Positions 36,371 through 44,887 of a stretch of 64,000 nt of DNA are shown here, piece by piece (the first letter of the stretch is position 1; each line of letters starts with the position of its first letter). The stretch covers positions 192,001 to 256,000 of the forward strand of contig JAFWDK010000019.1 of the NCBI GenBank assembly GCA_017513085.1. Direction: 5' to 3'. The notes beneath the pieces were generated by a model. The model worked only from the letters and a program-made list of their open reading frames with translations, had not been told where the DNA came from and did not search any database. The DNA is from Clostridiales bacterium. GTDB lineage: Bacteria > Bacillota > Clostridia > Saccharofermentanales > Saccharofermentanaceae. A program made the position numbers and the translations under genes.

Positions 36371-37198
36371 TCAAAGTTGTTTTTCTTTACTGTCCAAAGT
36401 CTCATTCATACTGCCGGTCCGATAGCCCTGAAGATCCATCGTAACATAAGCAAAACCAAGTTCATGCAGCGTGGAACAGACCTTGTCGCGCACGCCCTCT
36501 TCAACCAGTCTGGGGAATTCTTGCGGCAACACTTCGATCCGGGCGATATTCCCGTGGATGCGGACGCGGAACTGCTTGAAACCAAGGTCCAGGAGAAGTT
36601 GCTCGGCCTGATCGACCATTCTGAGTTTCTCTTCACTGATCGTCTCGCCGTAAACAAAACGCGACGACAGGCAGGCGAACGACGGCTTATCCCAAGTCGG
36701 AAGATCCAGTTCTTTTGAAAGCTGACGGATATCCTCCTTCGTCAGACCGGCTTGCCGAAGCGGGCTTTTGACACCAAGTTCCGCCACCGCGATCAGCCCC
36801 GGCCGGTAATCGCCGTTATCGTCAAGATTGGATCCCTCCGCAACATACTCAATTCCATTCGCCGCGGCCACGTCCAGGATCTTCGTAAAAAGCTCTTTCT
36901 TACAGATATAGCAGCGGTTCTTGGGGTTCTGGCGGAACCCGTCGATCGCTAGTTCCTCAGATTCGATCACGACCTGCCTGATGCCTTCCTTTTCGCAGAA
37001 TGCAGTTGCCTCTTGTAATTCTCGTTTGGGAAAAGAACAGGATTTAGCCGTAACGGCGATCACCTTATCCTTTAAGACATCTTTGGCGACCTTCAAAAGA
37101 AATGTGGAATCGACGCCGGAAGAGAATGCAACGGCTACACTTCCAAGCTCCTGAAGATACTGTTCCAGTTTCTGTTTTTTCTCATGTAATGCGTCCAT
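36371..37198 (-). CDS. larE: ATP-dependent sulfur transferase LarE (PP-loop family)
   Basis: AFSSGVDS PP-loop, NRCYICK, DYRPG, FACLSSRF and GYRTGSMN. Confidence 0.88.
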   Translation of the reverse strand: MDALHEKKQKLEQYLQELGSVAVAFSSGVDSTFLLKVAKDVLKDKVIAVTAKSCSFPKRELQEATAFCEKEGIRQVVIESEELAIDGFRQNPKNRCYICKKELFTKILDVAAANGIEYVAEGSNLDDNGDYRPGLIAVAELGVKSPLRQAGLTKEDIRQLSKELDLPTWDKPSFACLSSRFVYGETISEEKLRMVDQAEQLLLDLGFKQFRVRIHGNIARIEVLPQEFPRLVEEGVRDKVCSTLHELGFAYVTMDLQGYRTGSMNETLDSKEKQL

Positions 37199-37311
37199 AT
37201 GTACCTCTGTCTGTATTCCGATAGAGCGGAAAGAATCTTTTTCTTGATTGTACTATAGTACTCGATAACTTTCCTCGCTTCAATATCAACAGACATACAG
37301 ACGTACCCGGA

Positions 37312-37824
37312 TCAGGCGATATATTTCACACCCAAAGAACGAAGTTCCTGACGCATCTTCTGTACCTTTTCTGCCGGAAATCTCCGTCCGATACTCTCCT
37401 CGAGCATAACGACGGACGCCCCCGTCTTCGCCGCGCCTTTTGCTGTGGCGCCGACACATCCGCACTCATCGATCCCGCAGATCGCCACTTCTTTATAGTT
37501 CTGTGCTTTCATGTACTCGCGGAAAGCCTTGGCCGTATAGGCGTCAGAACGACTCTTCTCAAAGCACAGATCCGACACAACATCCAGTTTGCTGTAGAGC
37601 TCTGCCCCTTCTGTTCCCCGGATCGAGAATCCGACTCCCCACATCAGTTTGGACAATACATGCTTAATGTATATGATGTCGTAGCCCTTCTCTTTATAAT
37701 CGGCAATCGTCCGATTGATATGCCCGACCAGCGCATCACTGTCATAAGTAAACATCGCCTTTCTTTTTTCCCAGAAATAGTCATTCTGTATATCGATTAC
37801 CAGAAGTGCTCTCTTCTCTTGCAT
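37312..37824 (-). CDS. Isochorismatase-family cysteine hydrolase
   Basis: LLVIDIQNDY (Asp), FEK (Lys) and GIDECGCVGATA (Cys). Confidence 0.85.
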   Translation of the reverse strand: MQEKRALLVIDIQNDYFWEKRKAMFTYDSDALVGHINRTIADYKEKGYDIIYIKHVLSKLMWGVGFSIRGTEGAELYSKLDVVSDLCFEKSRSDAYTAKAFREYMKAQNYKEVAICGIDECGCVGATAKGAAKTGASVVMLEESIGRRFPAEKVQKMRQELRSLGVKYIA

Positions 37825-37957
37825 ATATTTCTCTCCTTCTCCAATCACTATGTTTCTCACCATTATTGAACGCGTTCAATTTATGATAACGCAGATTCTT
37901 CTTCTTTTCAATCAGAAAAAGAAATCCTGACAAAAAAATGCCGATATCATCAAAAAA

Positions 37958-38002
37958 GTTCCATATAGAACATTGACACCAATTAGTTCTATATGGTACC
38001 AT
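37958..38002 (+). promoter_or_regulatory. Sigma-A promoter with two near-palindromic MarR operators
   Basis: GTTCCATATAGAAC (37958-37971) and GTTCTATATGGTAC (37986-37999) flank TTGACA (37973) and overlap the extended -10 TGgTACCAT. Confidence 0.65.
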
Positions 38003-38071
38003 CTTCCTGTAAAACGTTTTATGATTTGCGGCGGAAGGATCTGTCCCCGCCTCAACAAAAAGGAGAGCACC

Positions 38072-38515
38072 ATGGATACCCGGACGGGTTTTCTCATATC
38101 TCAGATCAAGCAGGTGCAGGCCCGCGTGTTTCAGAAGCTCCTGGTGGAAAGCGGAGTGGAAGAATTCAATGGTCCGCAGGGACATATCCTGTATGTTCTC
38201 TGGCAGGCAGACGGAGTTCCGATCGTAGAGCTTTCGAAGAAGACCGGGCTTGCGAAGAACACCCTGACTGCGATGCTTGGCCGTCTTGAAGACTCCGGTC
38301 TGATCACCAGAGAAGCCCATGCTACAGACAAGCGCCAGTCCTTGATCGTGCTTACGAAGAAAGCACGTTCCTTGAAAGGCAAATACGATGAGGTATCCGA
38401 ACGCATGAATGAGATCTTCTACCAGGGATTTACCGAGAAAGAAGCGCTCCGCATGGACAGTTATCTTGACCGGATCCTGGAGAATCTCGAGAAGTCCGAA
38501 CAACAGAAGAAATGA
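38072..38515 (+). CDS. MarR-family transcriptional regulator
   Basis: QGHILYVLW...LAKNTLTAMLGRLEDSGLI.R...DKR. Start 38072 after AAGGAG. Confidence 0.88.
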   Translation: MDTRTGFLISQIKQVQARVFQKLLVESGVEEFNGPQGHILYVLWQADGVPIVELSKKTGLAKNTLTAMLGRLEDSGLITREAHATDKRQSLIVLTKKARSLKGKYDEVSERMNEIFYQGFTEKEALRMDSYLDRILENLEKSEQQKK

Positions 38516-38532
38516 TCGAAGGAGAATTTAAA

Positions 38533-39135
38533 ATGTCTAAAAAACTTGCCGAAAACGGAAATGATTTTTGCCCGCAATCACTGTTCCTTTACGGAACGAA
38601 AAACGAAGACGGAACGCCGCATTTCGGACTGTTCTGCTGGTTCAGTTATATCAGCACCCTGACGGAAAACGGTGAGGGTCTGGGCGTGATGGCCTGCATC
38701 GGCGAAGAAAAACTCACGAAAGATCTGATCCGCAAAAACGGCGTATTCTCTGCCAACCTGGTTACAGAAGAACTGCTTCCGCTCGCCGACTATTACGGCA
38801 ACATCAGTGGTCGTGAAAACCCGGACAAGATGCGTCATATGCCTACAGTTGAGCAAGGTCTGAAACTGGATGTTCCGACGATTGCCGAGAGTCCGATCAG
38901 CATGGAACTGCGTGTCCAGAAAGAGATCCACTTGACCGAGGGCAGCGATGTATTCCTTTGCGAGATCGTAGCCGTTTCCATGAAGGAGGAACTCATGAAT
39001 AAGCAGATCCCCTTCATCGACAGATATCTGTCGGTCATGCCGGTCCTCGCCGGCGGCGAACTACGCTATGTCACCGCAGACGGGAGAGACATGGGCCATT
39101 GGGGCGAACCCATGCAGGAACTCGCAGAAAAGTAA
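38533..39135 (+). CDS. Flavin reductase family protein
   Basis: TKDLIRKNGVFSANL...ADYYGNISGR...PTIAESPISMELRV split-barrel pattern; cotranscribed with the MarR gene. Confidence 0.75.
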   Translation: MSKKLAENGNDFCPQSLFLYGTKNEDGTPHFGLFCWFSYISTLTENGEGLGVMACIGEEKLTKDLIRKNGVFSANLVTEELLPLADYYGNISGRENPDKMRHMPTVEQGLKLDVPTIAESPISMELRVQKEIHLTEGSDVFLCEIVAVSMKEELMNKQIPFIDRYLSVMPVLAGGELRYVTADGRDMGHWGEPMQELAEK

Positions 39136-39180
39136 ATCAGGAAGTGCTTGGTGGAGAAGCTCGGCATGTTGAGGTTTCTT

Positions 39181-39687
39181 CTATTTTTTCGTTTGCTCAT
39201 TCTTCTTCCGGATTTTCTTAGTATAAGATCTGGCGTTGATAGTCAGCAATATTGAAAACACGATCGAGATCCATGCCGGGATCACGCAGTATCCGGGGCT
39301 GATCTGTCCGTCACTTTTCAGCACCAGGATCGCGGATCCGATCGTCACGCCGCAACAAACCATTTCTAATCCGAAAAATATAAGTGCCCGTATGATCGCC
39401 TGCTTCTTCGTTTTGTCTGTATAGTCCGCAATTAACAATAATGATTCTTTTGTCTCTTTGTCCATTTTCTCACTTTTCCTTTCGCCATCGATAAGTTCGC
39501 GGATATCCACATCGTAATAATCCGCCAGTTCAACAAGGATGCTCAGATCCGGAAGTGTATTTCCGTTTTCCCAACGTGAAACACTTCGGGACGATACTCC
39601 GAACAGATCAGCAATCTCTTCTTGCGTCTTATCTTTCTCTTTTCTCAGACGCTTAAGAAACTCACCGATCTTTTTCTGGTCTATCAT
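39181..39687 (-). CDS. XRE-family HTH regulator with two C-terminal TM helices
   Basis: LRKEKDKTQEEIADLFGVSSRSVSRWENGNTLPD; hydrophobic C-terminus. Confidence 0.88.
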   Translation of the reverse strand: MIDQKKIGEFLKRLRKEKDKTQEEIADLFGVSSRSVSRWENGNTLPDLSILVELADYYDVDIRELIDGERKSEKMDKETKESLLLIADYTDKTKKQAIIRALIFFGLEMVCCGVTIGSAILVLKSDGQISPGYCVIPAWISIVFSILLTINARSYTKKIRKKNEQTKK

Positions 39688-40043
39688 GCAGAAATCCTCC
39701 TTTCGGTTCTGATTATCGATCGACTGCCCTAAGAAAACCACGTCACAAAGTGAGAAATGACGTTTTTCCTACCGGACAGATTTGTCTGGTCGCCTGTTTT
39801 CAGGCATTTCCGAGATATCCATCCCGGAACCGATTTTATGTCATTTTACAATAAGCCGCAAGCGGAAACAATTCCTTCCGACTCACGAAAAGAACTTTCC
39901 AAGATGAGGTCGCTTCCTCGTTCATCTCCCCGTTCAATCTGAATCTAAGGAAACCACAGCAGGCGCTCTCTTCTATTCTTTCGGGTTCGATGATGGTATA
40001 ATAGTCAAAACAGTTCACCTTCAAGTTTAGGAGGATTACGAGA

Positions 40044-40394
40044 ATGGAAAATTTAAACTACCAGCCACCGGTAACAGTCAATGACCGGGCTGGCGAAAAG
40101 GTAATCGAAGCGAACTTCCGAATCGATGATATAAAAGCTCAGATCGCAGAACTAGAGATCAAGATTTCTGCTCTATACAATGTGATCGTCGAGCAAGGTA
40201 TCGATCCTAAGCTTATCGAAAGGAAAGTTGAAGAACTGGTAACAAACCGTCCTGAACGACCGCTCGTATCTGTCTTAACAAGATCGCAGATTTGTCCGGA
40301 ATGCGGGAAGAAGGTCAAACCATCCTCCGTTGATCCATTGATGGGAACCTGCCTGTTCTGTGGGACCAAAGTGCCTTTTTACCCTACATTCTGA
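40044..40394 (+). CDS. Hypothetical protein: coiled coil plus C-terminal Zn ribbon
   Basis: GGAGG RBS, CPECG...CLFCG, and a terminator downstream. Confidence 0.75.
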   Translation: MENLNYQPPVTVNDRAGEKVIEANFRIDDIKAQIAELEIKISALYNVIVEQGIDPKLIERKVEELVTNRPERPLVSVLTRSQICPECGKKVKPSSVDPLMGTCLFCGTKVPFYPTF

Positions 40395-40425
40395 ACAGAC
40401 GGCAAGCACAATAAACCAAGATCAC

Positions 40426-40451
40426 GAACGGCTTACATGCCGTTCTTTTTA
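40426..40451 (+). terminator. Intrinsic terminator
   Basis: GAACGGC-ttacat-GCCGTTC followed by TTTTT. Confidence 0.7.
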
Positions 40452-40562
40452 TTTATCCGCTCAGTATAACTATCTCATTTTTTCACTATTCTGCCTTATA
40501 ATGGAGCCAAAAGAACCAAGTCGGCGGGGAGATCCTGCATTCCCGCAGTTTTCGGCATCAAC

Positions 40563-41240
40563 TCACAGAAATATCCCCATCAGAACGAAAAGCGCAATAA
40601 TGATCGCAAGATATACCAGCGCGAGTATTCGCTTGATGGTTTCTTTCTTCCTGTCTTTCCTCTGCCGGACCGGCGGAAGCGAGAAGATCCTCTTCCATTT
40701 CTCCCTTTTCGGATGCTCGACGGTATTGTCGATATAGGAACGGAAATCGAAATTCGATCTGACCTCACTATCCGGGTACAAGTGTTTCTCCGCTGTACGG
40801 GAAAACCGGTCCTCCTGCGTCAGCTGTCTTAGATTCCGTGCAATATCGCATCGGTCGGCAGACATACTCACAAGTGATTCCTGGACCCCAAAGTACTCCG
40901 CGATGTCCTCTGTGCCGCAGGACTTCTTCTCCGCGATGCAGACGATAAACCAGATCTCCGGCAACTTATCCCCGACGAAAGGCGGTTTTTGCATATATTC
41001 CTCGATATATTCGTCCCTCGAGGAATATTTCTCCATTTCGGGAAAACCATCCGCCCAGCTATACATCAGGCCATATCTTCGCGCCCGCAGGTCGCTTTCC
41101 GTATAGAACTCTTTGTCATGCTTGATATAAGCCCATTTTGCGATCCGAGGATGGTCGAGTGCAGCACGGATAAAGGCTTCCGTATCCTCGCCCTTATCGC
41201 CTTCTTTTATCGTGATATAATAACCGTGCTCTTTACTCAT
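40563..41240 (-). CDS. Degenerate rolling-circle Rep (HUH/Rep_2-like) domain with a C-terminal transmembrane anchor
   Basis: KWAYIKHDKEFYTESD, IAEYFGVQE and KHLYPDSEVRSNFDF match clostridial RCR Rep scaffold motifs. HUH position reads IWF and YLTH position reads QLTQ. C-terminal basic stretch plus ~21-aa hydrophobic helix. Confidence 0.65.
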   Translation of the reverse strand: MSKEHGYYITIKEGDKGEDTEAFIRAALDHPRIAKWAYIKHDKEFYTESDLRARRYGLMYSWADGFPEMEKYSSRDEYIEEYMQKPPFVGDKLPEIWFIVCIAEKKSCGTEDIAEYFGVQESLVSMSADRCDIARNLRQLTQEDRFSRTAEKHLYPDSEVRSNFDFRSYIDNTVEHPKREKWKRIFSLPPVRQRKDRKKETIKRILALVYLAIIIALFVLMGIFL

Positions 41241-41275
41241 ATTTCTCTTTTCCCCAAATCACGCTCAAGCGCGCG

Positions 41276-42160
41276 TCAAGGCTCGAACTTCGTTCCGCAC
41301 TCGGTGCAGAATTTTGCTGTCTTCGAGGTTCGCAGCGCTCCGCAGGACAGACAGTATGAACGGTCTTCCGGCCTGACCGTCTGACCGGACTTCGCGGCGA
41401 TTTCTTTGAGAAGGGCGAGCGTCCGCTCCGGATCGGTGAAGATCCGCTCATGTTCCTGGTCGAACCGGATGAATCCTTCCCACTCACCCACTTCTACATA
41501 TGCTTCTTTAGGATCTTTGCAAAGCTCTCTCACTTGTTCCTTGATCCAAGGAAGAATATCCGATGGTACGCTATAGCTGTTCTCACTATCCCCTTCACGG
41601 ATCACCACACATGCGTTTTGGTTTGAAAAGTAGAAGGCACTCAACATGACATCCGGACGGATCGTCCCAAAGGCCGGATCCGGAACAGGAGCCGGTCCGG
41701 GATAAACCTGATGGTGGATCGAACTCAGTTCAAAATCTTCCGGCAATTCCGGATTCGGGTAACAATAATTGATGCGATCTCTCTGGTTAAGCGGCTCCCC
41801 ACATACGGCGCGGAGTTCTTCCAGCATCTGGTACAGGACTTCTTCGTCCATATCGTGATAATAGGTATCGACCTGCCCGTCTTCTCTTGTCTCGACGACC
41901 GCAGCCATCTCCTTTCCATTCAACGAAGGCTCGAGAGGAAAGAATCCCCGATGCTTCTCCCCGCACTTACTGAGCACCTCTTCGACGAACTTTTCCGCCG
42001 CCTCCCGTGGCACAGCATAATCCGAAGCCTCATGCGTCAGGAGGTAGTTTCCGTCTTTTAAGCTGGTCACCCTGTAATCTGTATTTACAGGCGGTCCCCC
42101 GCAGATCGTTTGCTCCATAAAGTATTTCTGGAGATTTCTGTATGCGATATAAATATACAC
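41276..42160 (-). CDS. Hypothetical protein with a C-terminal double-CxxC zinc ribbon
   Basis: CLSCG...KFCTECGTKF at the C-terminus. Start is uncertain and may lie further downstream (~42117). Confidence 0.7.
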   Translation of the reverse strand: MYIYIAYRNLQKYFMEQTICGGPPVNTDYRVTSLKDGNYLLTHEASDYAVPREAAEKFVEEVLSKCGEKHRGFFPLEPSLNGKEMAAVVETREDGQVDTYYHDMDEEVLYQMLEELRAVCGEPLNQRDRINYCYPNPELPEDFELSSIHHQVYPGPAPVPDPAFGTIRPDVMLSAFYFSNQNACVVIREGDSENSYSVPSDILPWIKEQVRELCKDPKEAYVEVGEWEGFIRFDQEHERIFTDPERTLALLKEIAAKSGQTVRPEDRSYCLSCGALRTSKTAKFCTECGTKFEP

Positions 42161-42265
42161 CCGAATGACCTATCCTTCTTCCCAATCTAAAACTAGATAT
42201 ATCACAGGATGGTCCGCAAATCAAATCCGCAGCCTGCGTAAGTGTTTTTGCTGAAGGCGGAGTGT

Positions 42266-43174
42266 TCACTCCTTTATGCCACGGATCTTAACTGCAGTAA
42301 GAAAATGCTTCTGTAAGAACGGATAGAGAATGATCATGGGAAGTATGGCCAGGATCATGACAGCCGACGCGACTCCGGCACGGCTGGGCGCAGCGGCCAC
42401 AGTCGAATCTACATAACCGTTACTTGCGTTAACTGCCGAGGTCTCCACTTTAAACAATTCAAACTGAATGGTTGAAAGCTCTTGGTTCATCCGATTGAAA
42501 AGCAACGTGTCAAACCAGGAACCCCAATGATTTGCGGCAGTAAAGAGTGCAACAACGGCATAGATCGCTCTGCACTGAGGACAGACAATACTCCAGAAGA
42601 TCCGCAAATACCCCGCGCCATCAAGTTGTGCAGATTCCTCCAGGGAATCCGGTATCGTCTCCATATATGACCGCATGAGCAATACGTGAAGCACACATAC
42701 CATTCCCGGGATAATATATACCCAGAAGCTCTGTATCAGATCGAGCTTTCTATATAGGACCAAAGTGGGGACCATTCCGGCTGATATGAACATCGTAAAA
42801 ACCCAAAACCGGGAAAGCATTGTCCGAAACACAAACTTTTTCCGGCTGAGGATAAAGGCAAGGACCGCGCAGGCGAGCACGGAAGTCAGCGTACCGAGAA
42901 CCGTTCTCTCGACACTAACGAGGAATGCCTTCCGGTAGTTAGTATTCTTAAAAAGCACCAGTTCCCAGTTTTTAAGAGTAGGAGAACGCGGAAATAATCT
43001 CAGCGCAAAGCTTTTATCTGCTACATCATAAACGCTGCTAAAGGACAACGGAATGAGGCGAAGTATCGGGTACAGGGCAACGATTGAAGAAACAATAAAG
43101 ACCGTCCATGTAAATATTCTAAAACACCGCTCGGAAGCGGGCACCGGTTTCTTGTATAAATCTCTTTCTTCCAT
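42266..43174 (-). CDS. Carbohydrate ABC transporter permease (MalG-like)
   Basis: IPDSLEESAQLDGAG EAA motif, HWGSWFD and LPMIILYPFLQKHF. Confidence 0.88.
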   Translation of the reverse strand: MEERDLYKKPVPASERCFRIFTWTVFIVSSIVALYPILRLIPLSFSSVYDVADKSFALRLFPRSPTLKNWELVLFKNTNYRKAFLVSVERTVLGTLTSVLACAVLAFILSRKKFVFRTMLSRFWVFTMFISAGMVPTLVLYRKLDLIQSFWVYIIPGMVCVLHVLLMRSYMETIPDSLEESAQLDGAGYLRIFWSIVCPQCRAIYAVVALFTAANHWGSWFDTLLFNRMNQELSTIQFELFKVETSAVNASNGYVDSTVAAAPSRAGVASAVMILAILPMIILYPFLQKHFLTAVKIRGIKE

Positions 43175-43265
43175 GATTTCTTCCCCCTAGAAGTACCCAT
43201 TCTGAATACTAGACACTTATCCAAGAGTTTTGTTACACACAGATTCAAAACAAAAGGATATGTGA

Positions 43266-43631
43266 TCAGCGTATCACATATCCTTCTTTGGCTAACACTT
43301 CTAAAGCCCGTCCAAAGTTTTCTTCTTTCACAAGAATATAATCCGTATTGTACGTCGATACAGCGAATATCCCTATCTTGTTTTCAGCAAGGATTCCGGA
43401 AATCTTCGAGAGTATACCGATCAACGAAAAATCCAGCACTCCCTGGATCCGAAAACCTCGCCAACCGTCATCTCTCTCAATAGTGTTTTCCGGAGCCTCT
43501 TCCGTTTTACATACTAAAGATAACTCCTCATCTGTTTTACCGATAAAATAAAACTCTGAAGACAGGTCCACAGCAGACACATCTTCAACTTTACATACAG
43601 TCAGATTATGTTCTAGTTTTTTTAGCTCCAT
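43266..43631 (-). CDS. ACT-domain protein (ACT_7/CASTOR-like)
   Basis: TDEELSLVC...GWRGFRIQGVLDFSLIGIL...IFAVSTYNTDYILV. Start 43631 after AAAGGAG. Confidence 0.88.
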   Translation of the reverse strand: MELKKLEHNLTVCKVEDVSAVDLSSEFYFIGKTDEELSLVCKTEEAPENTIERDDGWRGFRIQGVLDFSLIGILSKISGILAENKIGIFAVSTYNTDYILVKEENFGRALEVLAKEGYVIR

Positions 43632-43790
43632 GGTTAACTCCTTTGGAAGACCGGCTAAGATGCCGATCTGTCTTTTTCCTTGTTTCATTATATTCCAATT
43701 TGAACAAAGATATTCAACGCATCGGAGTAACGGTTGCATTAATGTGCTGAATAACCACTCTAAGTGAGACGATGACTGCGATCAAATATG

Positions 43791-44000
43791 TCATTTCTTC
43801 AGTGCATTTTTCTTTTCGAAAGAGAGCATCATCCGGTGCATGCCGATCAGGACGACTGCCAGAATAATGGTTGCAACAAAAAAGATAAGAGACAGTTTTA
43901 GCATTTCAAGATTGAAGGCTATGGCGGCGACTGCCAAGCAAACAGCAAAAACTCCGAATATGATCCTAAGTAAAACTTCTCCTGTTGAATTTTCCATCAT
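43791..44000 (-). CDS. Small two-TM membrane protein
   Basis: GGAGG RBS; 69 aa with two hydrophobic helices and a basic tail. Confidence 0.6.
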   Translation of the reverse strand: MMENSTGEVLLRIIFGVFAVCLAVAAIAFNLEMLKLSLIFFVATIILAVVLIGMHRMMLSFEKKNALKK

Positions 44001-44131
44001 CTTTCCTCCGGTTCGATCATCATTTTATGATTCTATCTTATCCTTGATGCATTAAGTCATCGTCAATCAAACATAAAGAAAGCGTTAAGATTGAAAACTG
44101 TTCGCCGAACGTCAAAGGTCGCTCGAGCGGC

Positions 44132-44887
44132 TCAAAGACCGGCCAGATCGTTGATGACTTCGCCGGCGATGATCAGGCCGACTACGGATGGAACAAACGC
44201 GGTGGAGCCGGGAATAGCTCTTCGATCTGTACATTTTCTCTCCGCGCCCGGTGGGCAGATACAATGCTGTCTGCAGCTGATGGACATATCCTCCAACGGT
44301 CGGACCGGTGCTTCCTTGGAATACACGACTTTCAGGGAGTCGATGCCTCTTTTTTTGCACTCACGCCGCATGACTTTGGCCAGCGGGCATATAGATGTCT
44401 CGTAAATATCCGCCACCTCAAAAAGCGCGGCATGAAGTTTGTTTCCTGCGCCCATGGAGGAGATGACCGGGACGCCGGCTTCCTTTGCTTTTTCAATAAT
44501 GGCCAGTTTTCCGGTTACGGTGTCGATCGCATCGACTACATAATCGTACTCTCTGAAATCGAACTGATCCTGAGTCTCCGGCAGAAAGAATGTGCGAAAT
44601 GCTCTGACGTTGCATTCCGGGTTGATATCGTGCACCCGTTCTTCAGCCACGTCAACTTTATATTTCCCGACGGTCTTCCTCGTGGCAATGATCTGGCGGT
44701 TGATATTGGTCAGGCAGACCTTGTCATCGTCGATAAGGTCCAGGGCGCCGATCCCGCTTCGGGCCAGCGCCTCCACGACATAGCCGCCCACGCCCCCGAT
44801 TCCGAAAACGGCAACACGGGAAGACGCGAACTTTTCCATCGCTTCCGGTCCATATAACAGTTGTGTTCTGGAAAACTGATTCAGCAT
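44132..44887 (-). CDS. tcdA: tRNA threonylcarbamoyladenosine dehydratase (ThiF family)
   Basis: GIGGVG, TNINRQ, YVVDAID, SSMGAGNK, CPLAK and VVYSKE. Confidence 0.88.
   Translation of the reverse strand: MLNQFSRTQLLYGPEAMEKFASSRVAVFGIGGVGGYVVEALARSGIGALDLIDDDKVCLTNINRQIIATRKTVGKYKVDVAEERVHDINPECNVRAFRTFFLPETQDQFDFREYDYVVDAIDTVTGKLAIIEKAKEAGVPVISSMGAGNKLHAALFEVADIYETSICPLAKVMRRECKKRGIDSLKVVYSKEAPVRPLEDMSISCRQHCICPPGAERKCTDRRAIPGSTAFVPSVVGLIIAGEVINDLAGL

Follow-up and report, generated by a model that had tools for sequence, protein, structure and literature searches.

The 64,000-nucleotide stretch of DNA analysed here (the window; positions 192,001 to 256,000 of contig JAFWDK010000019.1 of a Clostridiales bacterium) holds on its minus strand, at 40563..41240, an intact open reading frame (ORF) of 225 codons plus stop, which starts with ATG at the same Met as its homologs and encodes what we call the dead Rep: a domain with the HUH fold of Rep_OBD replication initiators, deprived of its catalytic residues and followed by a basic, tail-anchored C-terminus. 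The Rep_OBD-like domain covers residues 1-175 (40716..41240), as judged from phmmer matches and from an AF2 (AlphaFold) model compared by Foldseek and VIA-align. It includes a helical insertion at residues 48-88 (40977..41099), delimited by alignment gaps and model helices and placed between the H-D-K strand and the former HUH strand, and, located by alignment to active relatives, a degenerate HUH metal-binding motif I-W-F at residues 96-98 (40947..40955) and a degenerate catalytic Tyr motif Q-L-T-Q at residues 139-142 (40815..40826), where active relatives read YLTH. The domain is followed by a basic linker, KREKWKRIFSLPPVRQRKDRKKETIKR, of residues 176-204 (40629..40715), defined by its charge and by a family-wide motif of the form hydrophobic-x-P-x-P ahead of a Lys/Arg run, and by a C-terminal transmembrane (TM) tail anchor of residues 205-225 (40566..40628), recognised by hydropathy and a predicted helix, all on the minus strand. 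The motifs from which a first-pass annotation of this DNA had proposed a resemblance to Rep initiators, namely W36-AYIKHDKEFYTE, G90-DKLPE, I96-W97-F98, I113-AEYFGV, Q139-L-T-Q142 and K152-HLYPDSEVRSNFDF, are all exact, and the frame is intact as described, a purine-rich run GGGGAAAAGAG (41245..41255, minus strand) that resembles a ribosome-binding site lying 4-14 nt ahead of the ATG within the 35-nt gap downstream of the preceding gene.

The link of this protein to Rep_OBD (PF01719, formerly Rep_2) is transitive, profile-based and structural. The Pfam Rep_OBD model does not match it even at E<=1 and matches none of seven short relatives at E<=1e-3, scans of the single sequence with Pfam, PHROGs, PDB, NCBIfam and PADLOC yielded no informative match, and a precomputed PF01719 label is carried by one member with four TM segments (P0090). 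A phmmer search of 1.84 billion representatives gave 85 matches at E<=1e-3, 18 of them at E<=1e-10; the close matches are short (137-304 amino acids, aa) and without any Pfam family, and those from E 8e-16 on toward weaker scores are proteins of 450-650 aa. Rep_OBD was present in 22 of the 34 matches scanned with Pfam, in 18 cases above the curated cut-off and mostly together with a superfamily 3 (SF3) helicase domain (PF00910), and such Rep_OBD plus SF3-helicase proteins are the nearest sequence relatives beyond the short family (E 8e-16 to 1e-8, 26-32% identity); matches at E 8.3e-16 (P0016), 5.8e-13 (P0018) and 1.6e-10 (P0024) all lie above the PF01719 cut-off. When a profile was built from the target and four close homologs, the replication initiator RepB of pMV158 was its sole PDB match (E 0.13), in an alignment that places RepB H55-Y-H57 on target I96-W-F98 and RepB Y99-L-T-H102 on target Q139-L-T-Q142, and a mixed profile of 65 sequences matched RepB (3DKX) at E 1.1e-4. 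Among collections of mobile elements, the cultured phages gave no match, the cultured plasmids gave one weak match to a plasmid Rep, and IMG/VR held no dead-Rep member, its single match being an active Rep of 462 aa.

The same relationship is apparent from the predicted structure. The AlphaFold model made from the 65-sequence alignment is a confident one (pLDDT 93.5, pTM 0.80), its top ten Foldseek matches in the PDB are all pMV158 RepB (probability 1.00, E 7e-5 to 4e-3), and VIA-align superimposes model residues 2-170 on RepB 4-132 with Z 11.0-12.3 and a root mean square deviation of 2.9-3.5 A over 108-120 aligned residues, as compared with Z 8.1 for circovirus Rep, about 6 for the origin-binding domain (OBD) of papillomavirus E1 and about 5 for unrelated folds. 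The structural neighbours of the model in the ESM Atlas are furthermore Rep_OBD clusters. A first AF2 model from five sequences (pLDDT 76.9), which had no Foldseek match at E<=1e-3 and placed RepB only at rank 12, was superseded by the 65-sequence model. Judged by sequence and model together, the body of the protein is a genuine Rep_OBD domain, and the resemblance to Rep_2-like HUH proteins that had been proposed from motifs proves correct, since sequence searches and comparison of the AlphaFold model both lead to RepB and Rep_OBD.

The OBD/nuclease domain of RepB (PF01719; PDB 3DKX, 8AMT, 8AMU) has the same fold and the same order of motifs as the target, and the two share the H-D-K-(D/E) strand, the central aromatic residue of the HUH strand, the L-T-x-E helix and the K-H-x-Y...N-F-D motif. 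They differ in that H55, H57, Y99 and H102 of RepB are I, F, Q and Q in the target, in that the target has an additional helical insertion of about 35-40 aa, in that the hexamerisation domain is replaced by the basic linker and TM helix, and in that the target gene is chromosomal whereas RepB is encoded on a plasmid.

The loss of the catalytic site extends over the entire group of short relatives. We aligned 100 domain sequences and compared a non-redundant set of 20 dead and 71 active rows, and with the caveat that the two groups were defined by the same trait that is counted, the active rows have the first HUH His in 71 of 71 cases and the second in 70, the YLTH Tyr in 70 and the YLTH His in 71, as against 28 short rows with the first HUH His in none, the second in five, the Tyr in two (L016 and L017) and the last YLTH His in three. 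None of 14 further short forms from metagenomes has a full HxH, L046 among them reading H-W-R plus YLTH, so that the Tyr is retained among the 42 short forms only in L016, L017 and L046, none of which has a complete HxH, and a complete catalytic site is found in none of the 42. In the target, I96 and F98 replace the HUH His pair and Q139 and Q142 the Tyr and His of YLTH; across the short forms the replacing residues vary widely, as is to be expected once catalysis has become dispensable. The H-D-K-D strand, a possible source of a third metal ligand, is represented by H41, D42 and E44 in the target, and its His column reads H in 14, Q in four and R in two of the 20 dead rows, but such a ligand is insufficient without the HUH His pair. 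Going by sequence, then, the target domain has lost the means to bind the catalytic metal and to link itself to DNA through a Tyr, and the first-pass view of a site lost within a fold kept is borne out by the alignment columns and the confident RepB-like model. Since the defining catalytic features fail and a match to the Pfam model is absent, the protein should not be filed as a Rep initiator.

Two side observations concern sequences at the edge of this pattern. The three members with a retained Tyr (reading YLTH or YLTR, L046 also having the first HUH His) make up a sub-branch of the dead clade, and this may reflect either slower decay of the site or residual activity. Conversely, one Rep plus helicase protein nested among the active ones (P0071, 601 aa) reads Y-W-H and E-L-T-Y and has an altered Walker A motif, G-H-S-V-V-G-K-N, which would make it either an independent inactivation or a decaying copy.

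In a tree of 92 rows (eight near-duplicate or fragment rows having been dropped), built by IQ-TREE in a quick search on an alignment that retained the catalytic columns, the dead short forms fall on one side of a branch of length 1.23 with SH-aLRT 100, and even members that are only about 31-37% identical to the target share the clade-specific insertion and tail motif. The frame is intact in all full-length members, and the pairwise ratio of nonsynonymous to synonymous substitution rates (dN/dS, NG86) is 0.07-0.24 in all 13 computable pairs of the 16 tried, the other three being saturated; the unsaturated pairs L007-L008 and L007-L009 have dS 0.42 and 0.16 with ratios of 0.15 and 0.09. The ratio is below 1 in all six regions for every computable pair, these samples being tiny, and the strain variants seen within the ORF in other gut metagenomes comprise three synonymous changes plus V174I and E13D. 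A neutrally evolving singleton, which had been named beforehand as the outcome that would undo the idea of a maintained dead Rep, is at odds with a single supported clade, low dN/dS, ratios below 1 by region and mostly synonymous variants, and the dead site is instead conserved throughout the clade.

The dead Rep occurs in one copy per genome. Its host assembly (99.4% complete) has one dead copy and, as far as our searches of it went, no active Rep_OBD or helicase relative, and no active Rep was found in the seven dead-Rep genomes checked. Among 23 congeners the gene is present in two, at a different locus in these, and it is present in none of 36 more distant relatives; all relatives derive from metagenome-derived assemblies, and the dead-Rep family is one of rumen and gut Clostridia. 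The proteins are annotated at source as 'hypothetical protein' at most, the family is unnamed in Pfam, NCBIfam, PHROGs and PADLOC, and our full-text searches of the literature brought up no account of a dead Rep_OBD family that is free-standing and bacterial. On comparative sequence grounds the family is monophyletic, unannotated and under purifying selection, and its gene a self-contained chromosomal accessory one.

The tails vary within the family. The target ends 50 residues past the domain, with no PF00910; the 45 residues that follow its NFDF motif have a net charge of +9 and precede a hydrophobic segment with a 19-residue Kyte-Doolittle mean of 3.07 at residues 205-223 and a model helix over residues 195-224. 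For this protein, replacement of the helicase or oligomerisation tail by a Lys/Arg-rich stretch and one C-terminal TM helix is accordingly as the first-pass annotation had it, and the target is predicted to be inserted as a tail-anchored membrane protein, the bulk of which should, going by the positive-inside rule, lie on the cytoplasmic side. The dead site plus TM does not hold up as a conserved unit, however. A single TM is found only in the subclade of the target (the window, P0001-P0003, L004 and L005), a conserved tail of four TM segments is seen in a sister lineage (P0008, P0011/L020, P0013, P0021/L021, P0023 and P0090-P0095, as well as locus L056), and the majority of members (177-211 aa) have a basic tail without TM, sharing the hydrophobic-x-P-x-P motif and subsequent Lys/Arg. 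The four-TM module, with the motif SGIPFIGGIHLLIAGL-x-SPCKWLA, is found solely fused to dead Rep (8 of 8 matches) and has no significant match in Pfam, holin and toxin families appearing only at E>0.5. The charge of the basic tail is +4 to +10. Because the tails differ among subclades and are in most members only basic, membrane anchoring is best regarded as a recurrent add-on rather than a defining trait. An amphipathic membrane-targeting helix was considered for the TM-less members and rejected, as their mean best hydrophobic moment of 0.62 is not above that of shuffled tails (the fraction of shuffles reaching the observed value being 0.04-0.99).

Inside the domain, dead and active proteins alike retain the W-A-Y-I-x-H-D-K strand as well as the C-terminal Y-x-D-x-E-V-x-x-N-F-D-F-R motif. 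The insertion (about 35-40 aa, with model helices at 48-64 and 75-83) is conserved in the dead clade at R54, L58, W62, A63, G65, F66, G68, E70, K71, Y72, S74, E77, Y78, M83, P86 and P87, and these positions are unoccupied in 44-68 of the 71 active rows as opposed to at least 70% identity in the 20 dead rows, some active Rep_OBD plus helicase relatives also having an insertion at that site. Q148 and G151 are among the residues lost in the dead clade. Pairwise identity within the clade is 0.63 in the C-terminal motif, 0.55 in the insertion and 0.54 in the N-terminal part.

The surroundings of the gene are those of an ordinary chromosome. The window holds AddAB, PGI, two-component systems, MarR, flavin reductases and ThiF, and no integrase, transposase, relaxase, excisionase, plasmid or phage structural gene was detected by Pfam in the whole 64 kb, which agrees with the first-pass statement that integrase and plasmid genes are missing nearby; nor does the window contain a tRNA or a compositional step. 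At the 19 further dead-Rep loci scanned, mobile-element genes were likewise not found. The active relatives differ in this respect, as all three that were examined (L022-L024) adjoin a Mob_Pre relaxase and/or a tyrosine integrase/Xis. This fits the published role of PF01719 proteins, which with or without a helicase mark integrated plasmids and integrative mobilizable elements (IMEs) of Firmicutes (PMC6668415 and passages of PMC5704250) and are, as described in parts of the latter, common IME initiators or putative relaxases.

In most cases the dead-Rep gene is preceded, at a distance of no more than 40 bp, by a co-directional gene. In the window this is a gene for a 294-aa protein (41276..42160, minus strand), whose sole recognisable feature is a weak C-terminal zinc-ribbon match below the Pfam cut-off; no terminator-like site was found between the two, and they are probably co-transcribed. 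The product shows no similarity to those of the upstream genes at L005 and L006 and, by this comparison, is not a conserved partner of the dead Rep. Some loci hold ParE or AbiEii toxin-antitoxin modules, SUKH, or Schlafen-like helicase, MazG or Fic genes. One of them, L018 (1-20519), has the dead Rep directly after the gene of an FtsK_SpoIIIE ATPase, with a Schlafen-like helicase, a MazG-like protein, an ADP-ribosylglycohydrolase and a Fic protein in the region and no integrase within 10 kb, and these surroundings resemble a defence or variable island.

Nuclease folds of replication proteins have lost their catalytic function elsewhere, the OBDs of papillomavirus E1 and polyomavirus large T antigen being naturally inactivated derivatives of the HUH fold. 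These provide a precedent for the use of a Rep nuclease fold as a non-catalytic binding domain, but they stay fused to an SF3 helicase and bind a viral origin, while the target is helicase-less, cellular and chromosomal and has gained a membrane anchor. Among active proteins, the Rep_OBD plus SF3-helicase initiators of Firmicutes are, besides being the nearest relatives, from the same phylum and habitat, some with an insertion at the same site; they keep HxH, YLTH and the helicase and adjoin a Mob_Pre relaxase or integrase, all of which is lacking in the dead family, itself set apart on a long branch. Initiators of this architecture have been described as the 'YLxH supergroup' and as pCRESS4-8 (Kazlauskas et al. 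2019, PMC6668415), and, in passages of PMC5704250, as PF01719-helicase proteins of streptococcal IMEs. Conceptual precedents for a disabled mobile-element nuclease as inhibitor or regulator are furthermore given by engineered truncated or mutated geminivirus Rep, which is a trans-dominant inhibitor according to parts of PMC4148390, and by the nuclease-dead TnpB-derived repressors, TldR, as presented in parts of PMC10705468. The former is however artificial and eukaryotic-viral, the latter has a different fold and is RNA-guided, and neither is membrane-anchored.

Taken together, the fold kept, the catalysis lost and the purifying selection support the exaptation put forward by the first-pass annotation, and we consider it rather probable that the dead Rep is a functional, non-catalytic, exapted Rep domain acting by binding, although the more specific proposal of a membrane-anchored nucleic-acid binder does not find support as a family-wide trait. 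As to the function exerted by such binding, we infer a ranking in which interference with incoming elements is followed by a role as protein adaptor, as DNA-binding regulator and in abortive infection, and then by a mere remnant, the remainder falling to something else. The order of the first four is tentative.

Our tentative preference is that the dead Rep interferes with incoming Rep-type plasmids and IMEs, a mechanism that leads the ranking while being itself less than an even prospect. The Rep domain would have been captured from IMEs and lost its catalysis, and it would then bind a component of the replication or transfer apparatus of an incoming element without processing it. The bound component might be origin or oriT DNA, or else a protein, for which the helical insertion and the shared C-terminal motif would be the points of contact, and the binding would block the establishment of the incoming Rep-type element; in the lineage of the target, the tail anchor would station this activity at the membrane, the site of entry of such DNA. 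An accessory, conflict-like behaviour is supported by the patchy occurrence in two of 23 congeners, by the variable neighbourhoods and by the presence of two different membrane anchors on the same dead domain. Carried to its most specific and more speculative form, the proposal would be one of single-gene immunity, in which a 'pseudo-Rep' exclusion factor, an IME-derived dead Rep/relaxase domain held at the membrane in some lineages through a tail anchor or four-TM module, recognises the origin, oriT or replication-transfer machinery of Rep_OBD-type plasmids and IMEs and blocks these elements without cutting DNA; in this form it is rather unlikely. If interference were true, the dead Rep would be a natural counterpart of engineered dominant-negative Rep and a new instance of nuclease-dead exaptation.

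A considerable number of observations nevertheless weigh against interference. The former HUH strand and the recognition helix are the least conserved part of the dead clade (pairwise identity 0.33), a basic residue of the recognition helix that is K or R in 55 of 71 active rows is lost, with E, G and S as the commonest replacements, and an N-terminal Arg (R in 54 of 71 active rows) and the K-G...A-F-x-D-C-V stretch before the Tyr are lost as well. The core is also more acidic, with a mean net charge of -9.1 in the dead clade (-10 in the target) as compared with -4.4 in active relatives (standard deviation 4.4). In RepB, according to passages of PMC9943647, iteron recognition is separable from nicking and relies on helix alpha-2 (D69, R72, K73, K74, K76), the N-terminal tail and strand beta-4, and in the five-sequence profile alignment these helix residues fall on E111, A114, E115, Y116 and G118 of the target. 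With the RepB recognition residues thus replaced, DNA binding by the dead domain is possible but unsupported by residue conservation, and the loss of the recognition-helix K/R and of the active-site surround, together with the more acidic core, tells to some extent against the suggestion of a nucleic-acid binder. Further points against interference come from the genomes. No neighbour is conserved across the 20 dead-Rep loci (the window and 19 others; neighbours at 19 loci were compared all against all by BLAST), no PADLOC-DB v2 family matches either the target or the genes on its two sides at E<=0.01, and active Rep plus helicase relatives are so rare in the lineage, with at most two weak partial matches in 59 relatives, that the presumed target of interference is not evidently common. 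Since most members have no TM, a membrane location is not essential to the core function of the family. Finally, with regard to expression, in the one of four sequencing runs that is on record as a metatranscriptome a contig covers only 41654-41795, within the upstream gene and not the target; two other runs, of uncertain kind, have low-depth contigs across the dead-Rep ORF.

Several of the same observations are readily accommodated if the dead Rep is instead a protein-binding adaptor or decoy, in which the insertion (48-88) and the C-terminal H-x-Y-x-D-x-E-V-x-x-N-F-D-F-R would serve as an interaction surface and the basic tail or TM would determine where the complex resides; we regard this as unlikely, if the best of the alternatives. 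Within the domain, the insertion and the C-terminal motif rank among the best conserved stretches and the former DNA-handling region is the least conserved, and the loss of recognition-helix and active-site residues along with the acidic core also speaks for an adaptor. A host replication or repair factor is conceivable as the partner, as is a conjugative coupling ATPase, and in this regard the FtsK_SpoIIIE gene directly upstream at L018 and HerA/TrwB-like ATPases within 4 kb of the dead Rep at L005 and L017 may be mentioned; in the systems covered by parts of PMC5704250, the Rep_OBD protein of an IME often has an FtsK-like TcpA coupling protein at its side. However, ATPase neighbours are present at these three loci only and may reflect shared synteny, and no partner gene is conserved over the roughly 20 loci examined. 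If a host or conjugation protein were bound, a DNA-processing fold would have been turned into an adaptor, and whether by this route or by interference, the dead Rep represents a small, defined family of proteins of about 200 aa, in which the insertion, the former recognition helix and the tail lend themselves to mutational tests.

Less likely still is a host-domesticated, sequence-specific DNA-binding regulator, whose dead OBD would bind double-stranded DNA like the OBD of E1 or RepB, control host or neighbouring genes and be membrane-tethered in some lineages. The separability of iteron binding and nicking in RepB is in line with such a function, the basic tail could add DNA affinity, and the short distance to a co-directional upstream gene and the gene of a seemingly membrane-tethered helix-turn-helix (HTH) regulator 0.8 kb away may also be counted in its favour. 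Against this stand the lost basic residue of the recognition helix and the acidic core, the want of a discernible conserved neighbour or regulon, and a distribution over two of 23 congeners that is unlike that of a core regulator. Moreover, no iteron-like or palindromic repeats above chance were found near the gene, the repeats in 39700-42400 being short two-copy ones of 12-20 nt at chance level.

We find it improbable that the dead Rep is a single-protein abortive-infection defence, with the dead domain as the sensor of foreign Rep-type elements and the hydrophobic tail, of one or four TMs, as a membrane-damaging effector. That two unrelated membrane modules occur on the same dead domain, that the four-TM module is exclusive to dead-Rep fusions and that some loci lie among toxin-antitoxin or defence-type genes would be consistent with such a system, but most members lack a TM, PADLOC gives no match, the four-TM module resembles holins and toxins only at insignificant E-values and a single tail anchor is a weak candidate for an effector. 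A functionless, decaying remnant of the rep gene of an integrated plasmid or IME, as might be surmised from the missing helicase part and catalytic residues, the lack of an active partner in the host genome and the decay of such genes illustrated by P0071, is largely refuted and highly improbable in view of the intact frames, the dN/dS of 0.07-0.24, a deep monophyletic clade that keeps its specific insertion and tail motif at about 31-37% identity, and flanks in which no element remnants were found.

Some features of the neighbourhood may finally be mentioned in their own right. On the other side of the dead Rep lies a gene of unassigned role encoding 116 aa (40044-40394, plus strand), with only a weak C-terminal zinc-ribbon-like match below the Pfam cut-off, and beyond it, 0.8 kb from the dead Rep, a gene for a 186-aa protein (39181-39741, minus strand) that begins with an XRE-type HTH (PF01381, E 4.5e-16) and whose C-terminal half is hydrophobic. 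The latter looks like a membrane-tethered transcription regulator, and its weak PADLOC matches arise through the generic HTH alone. A lone gene for an ABC-type permease-like protein (42266-43174, minus strand; BPD_transp_1 at E 4e-5, below the cut-off), with no ATPase or binding-protein gene adjacent to it, may be the remnant of a transporter operon. A LarE-like gene (36371-37198) and a ThiF-family gene (44132-44887), which are adjacent in at least 13 of the 23 congeners, lie 6.9 kb apart here and in the opposite relative order; in the two dead-Rep congeners the dead-Rep gene is on a different contig from their adjacent LarE-ThiF pair. The interval 39.1-42.2 kb is almost unmatched in the genus, the 294-aa gene being essentially without a DNA match in the 23 congeners, and with the LarE and ThiF genes separated as well, 36371-44887 of the window stands out as a species-specific rearranged or variable segment.

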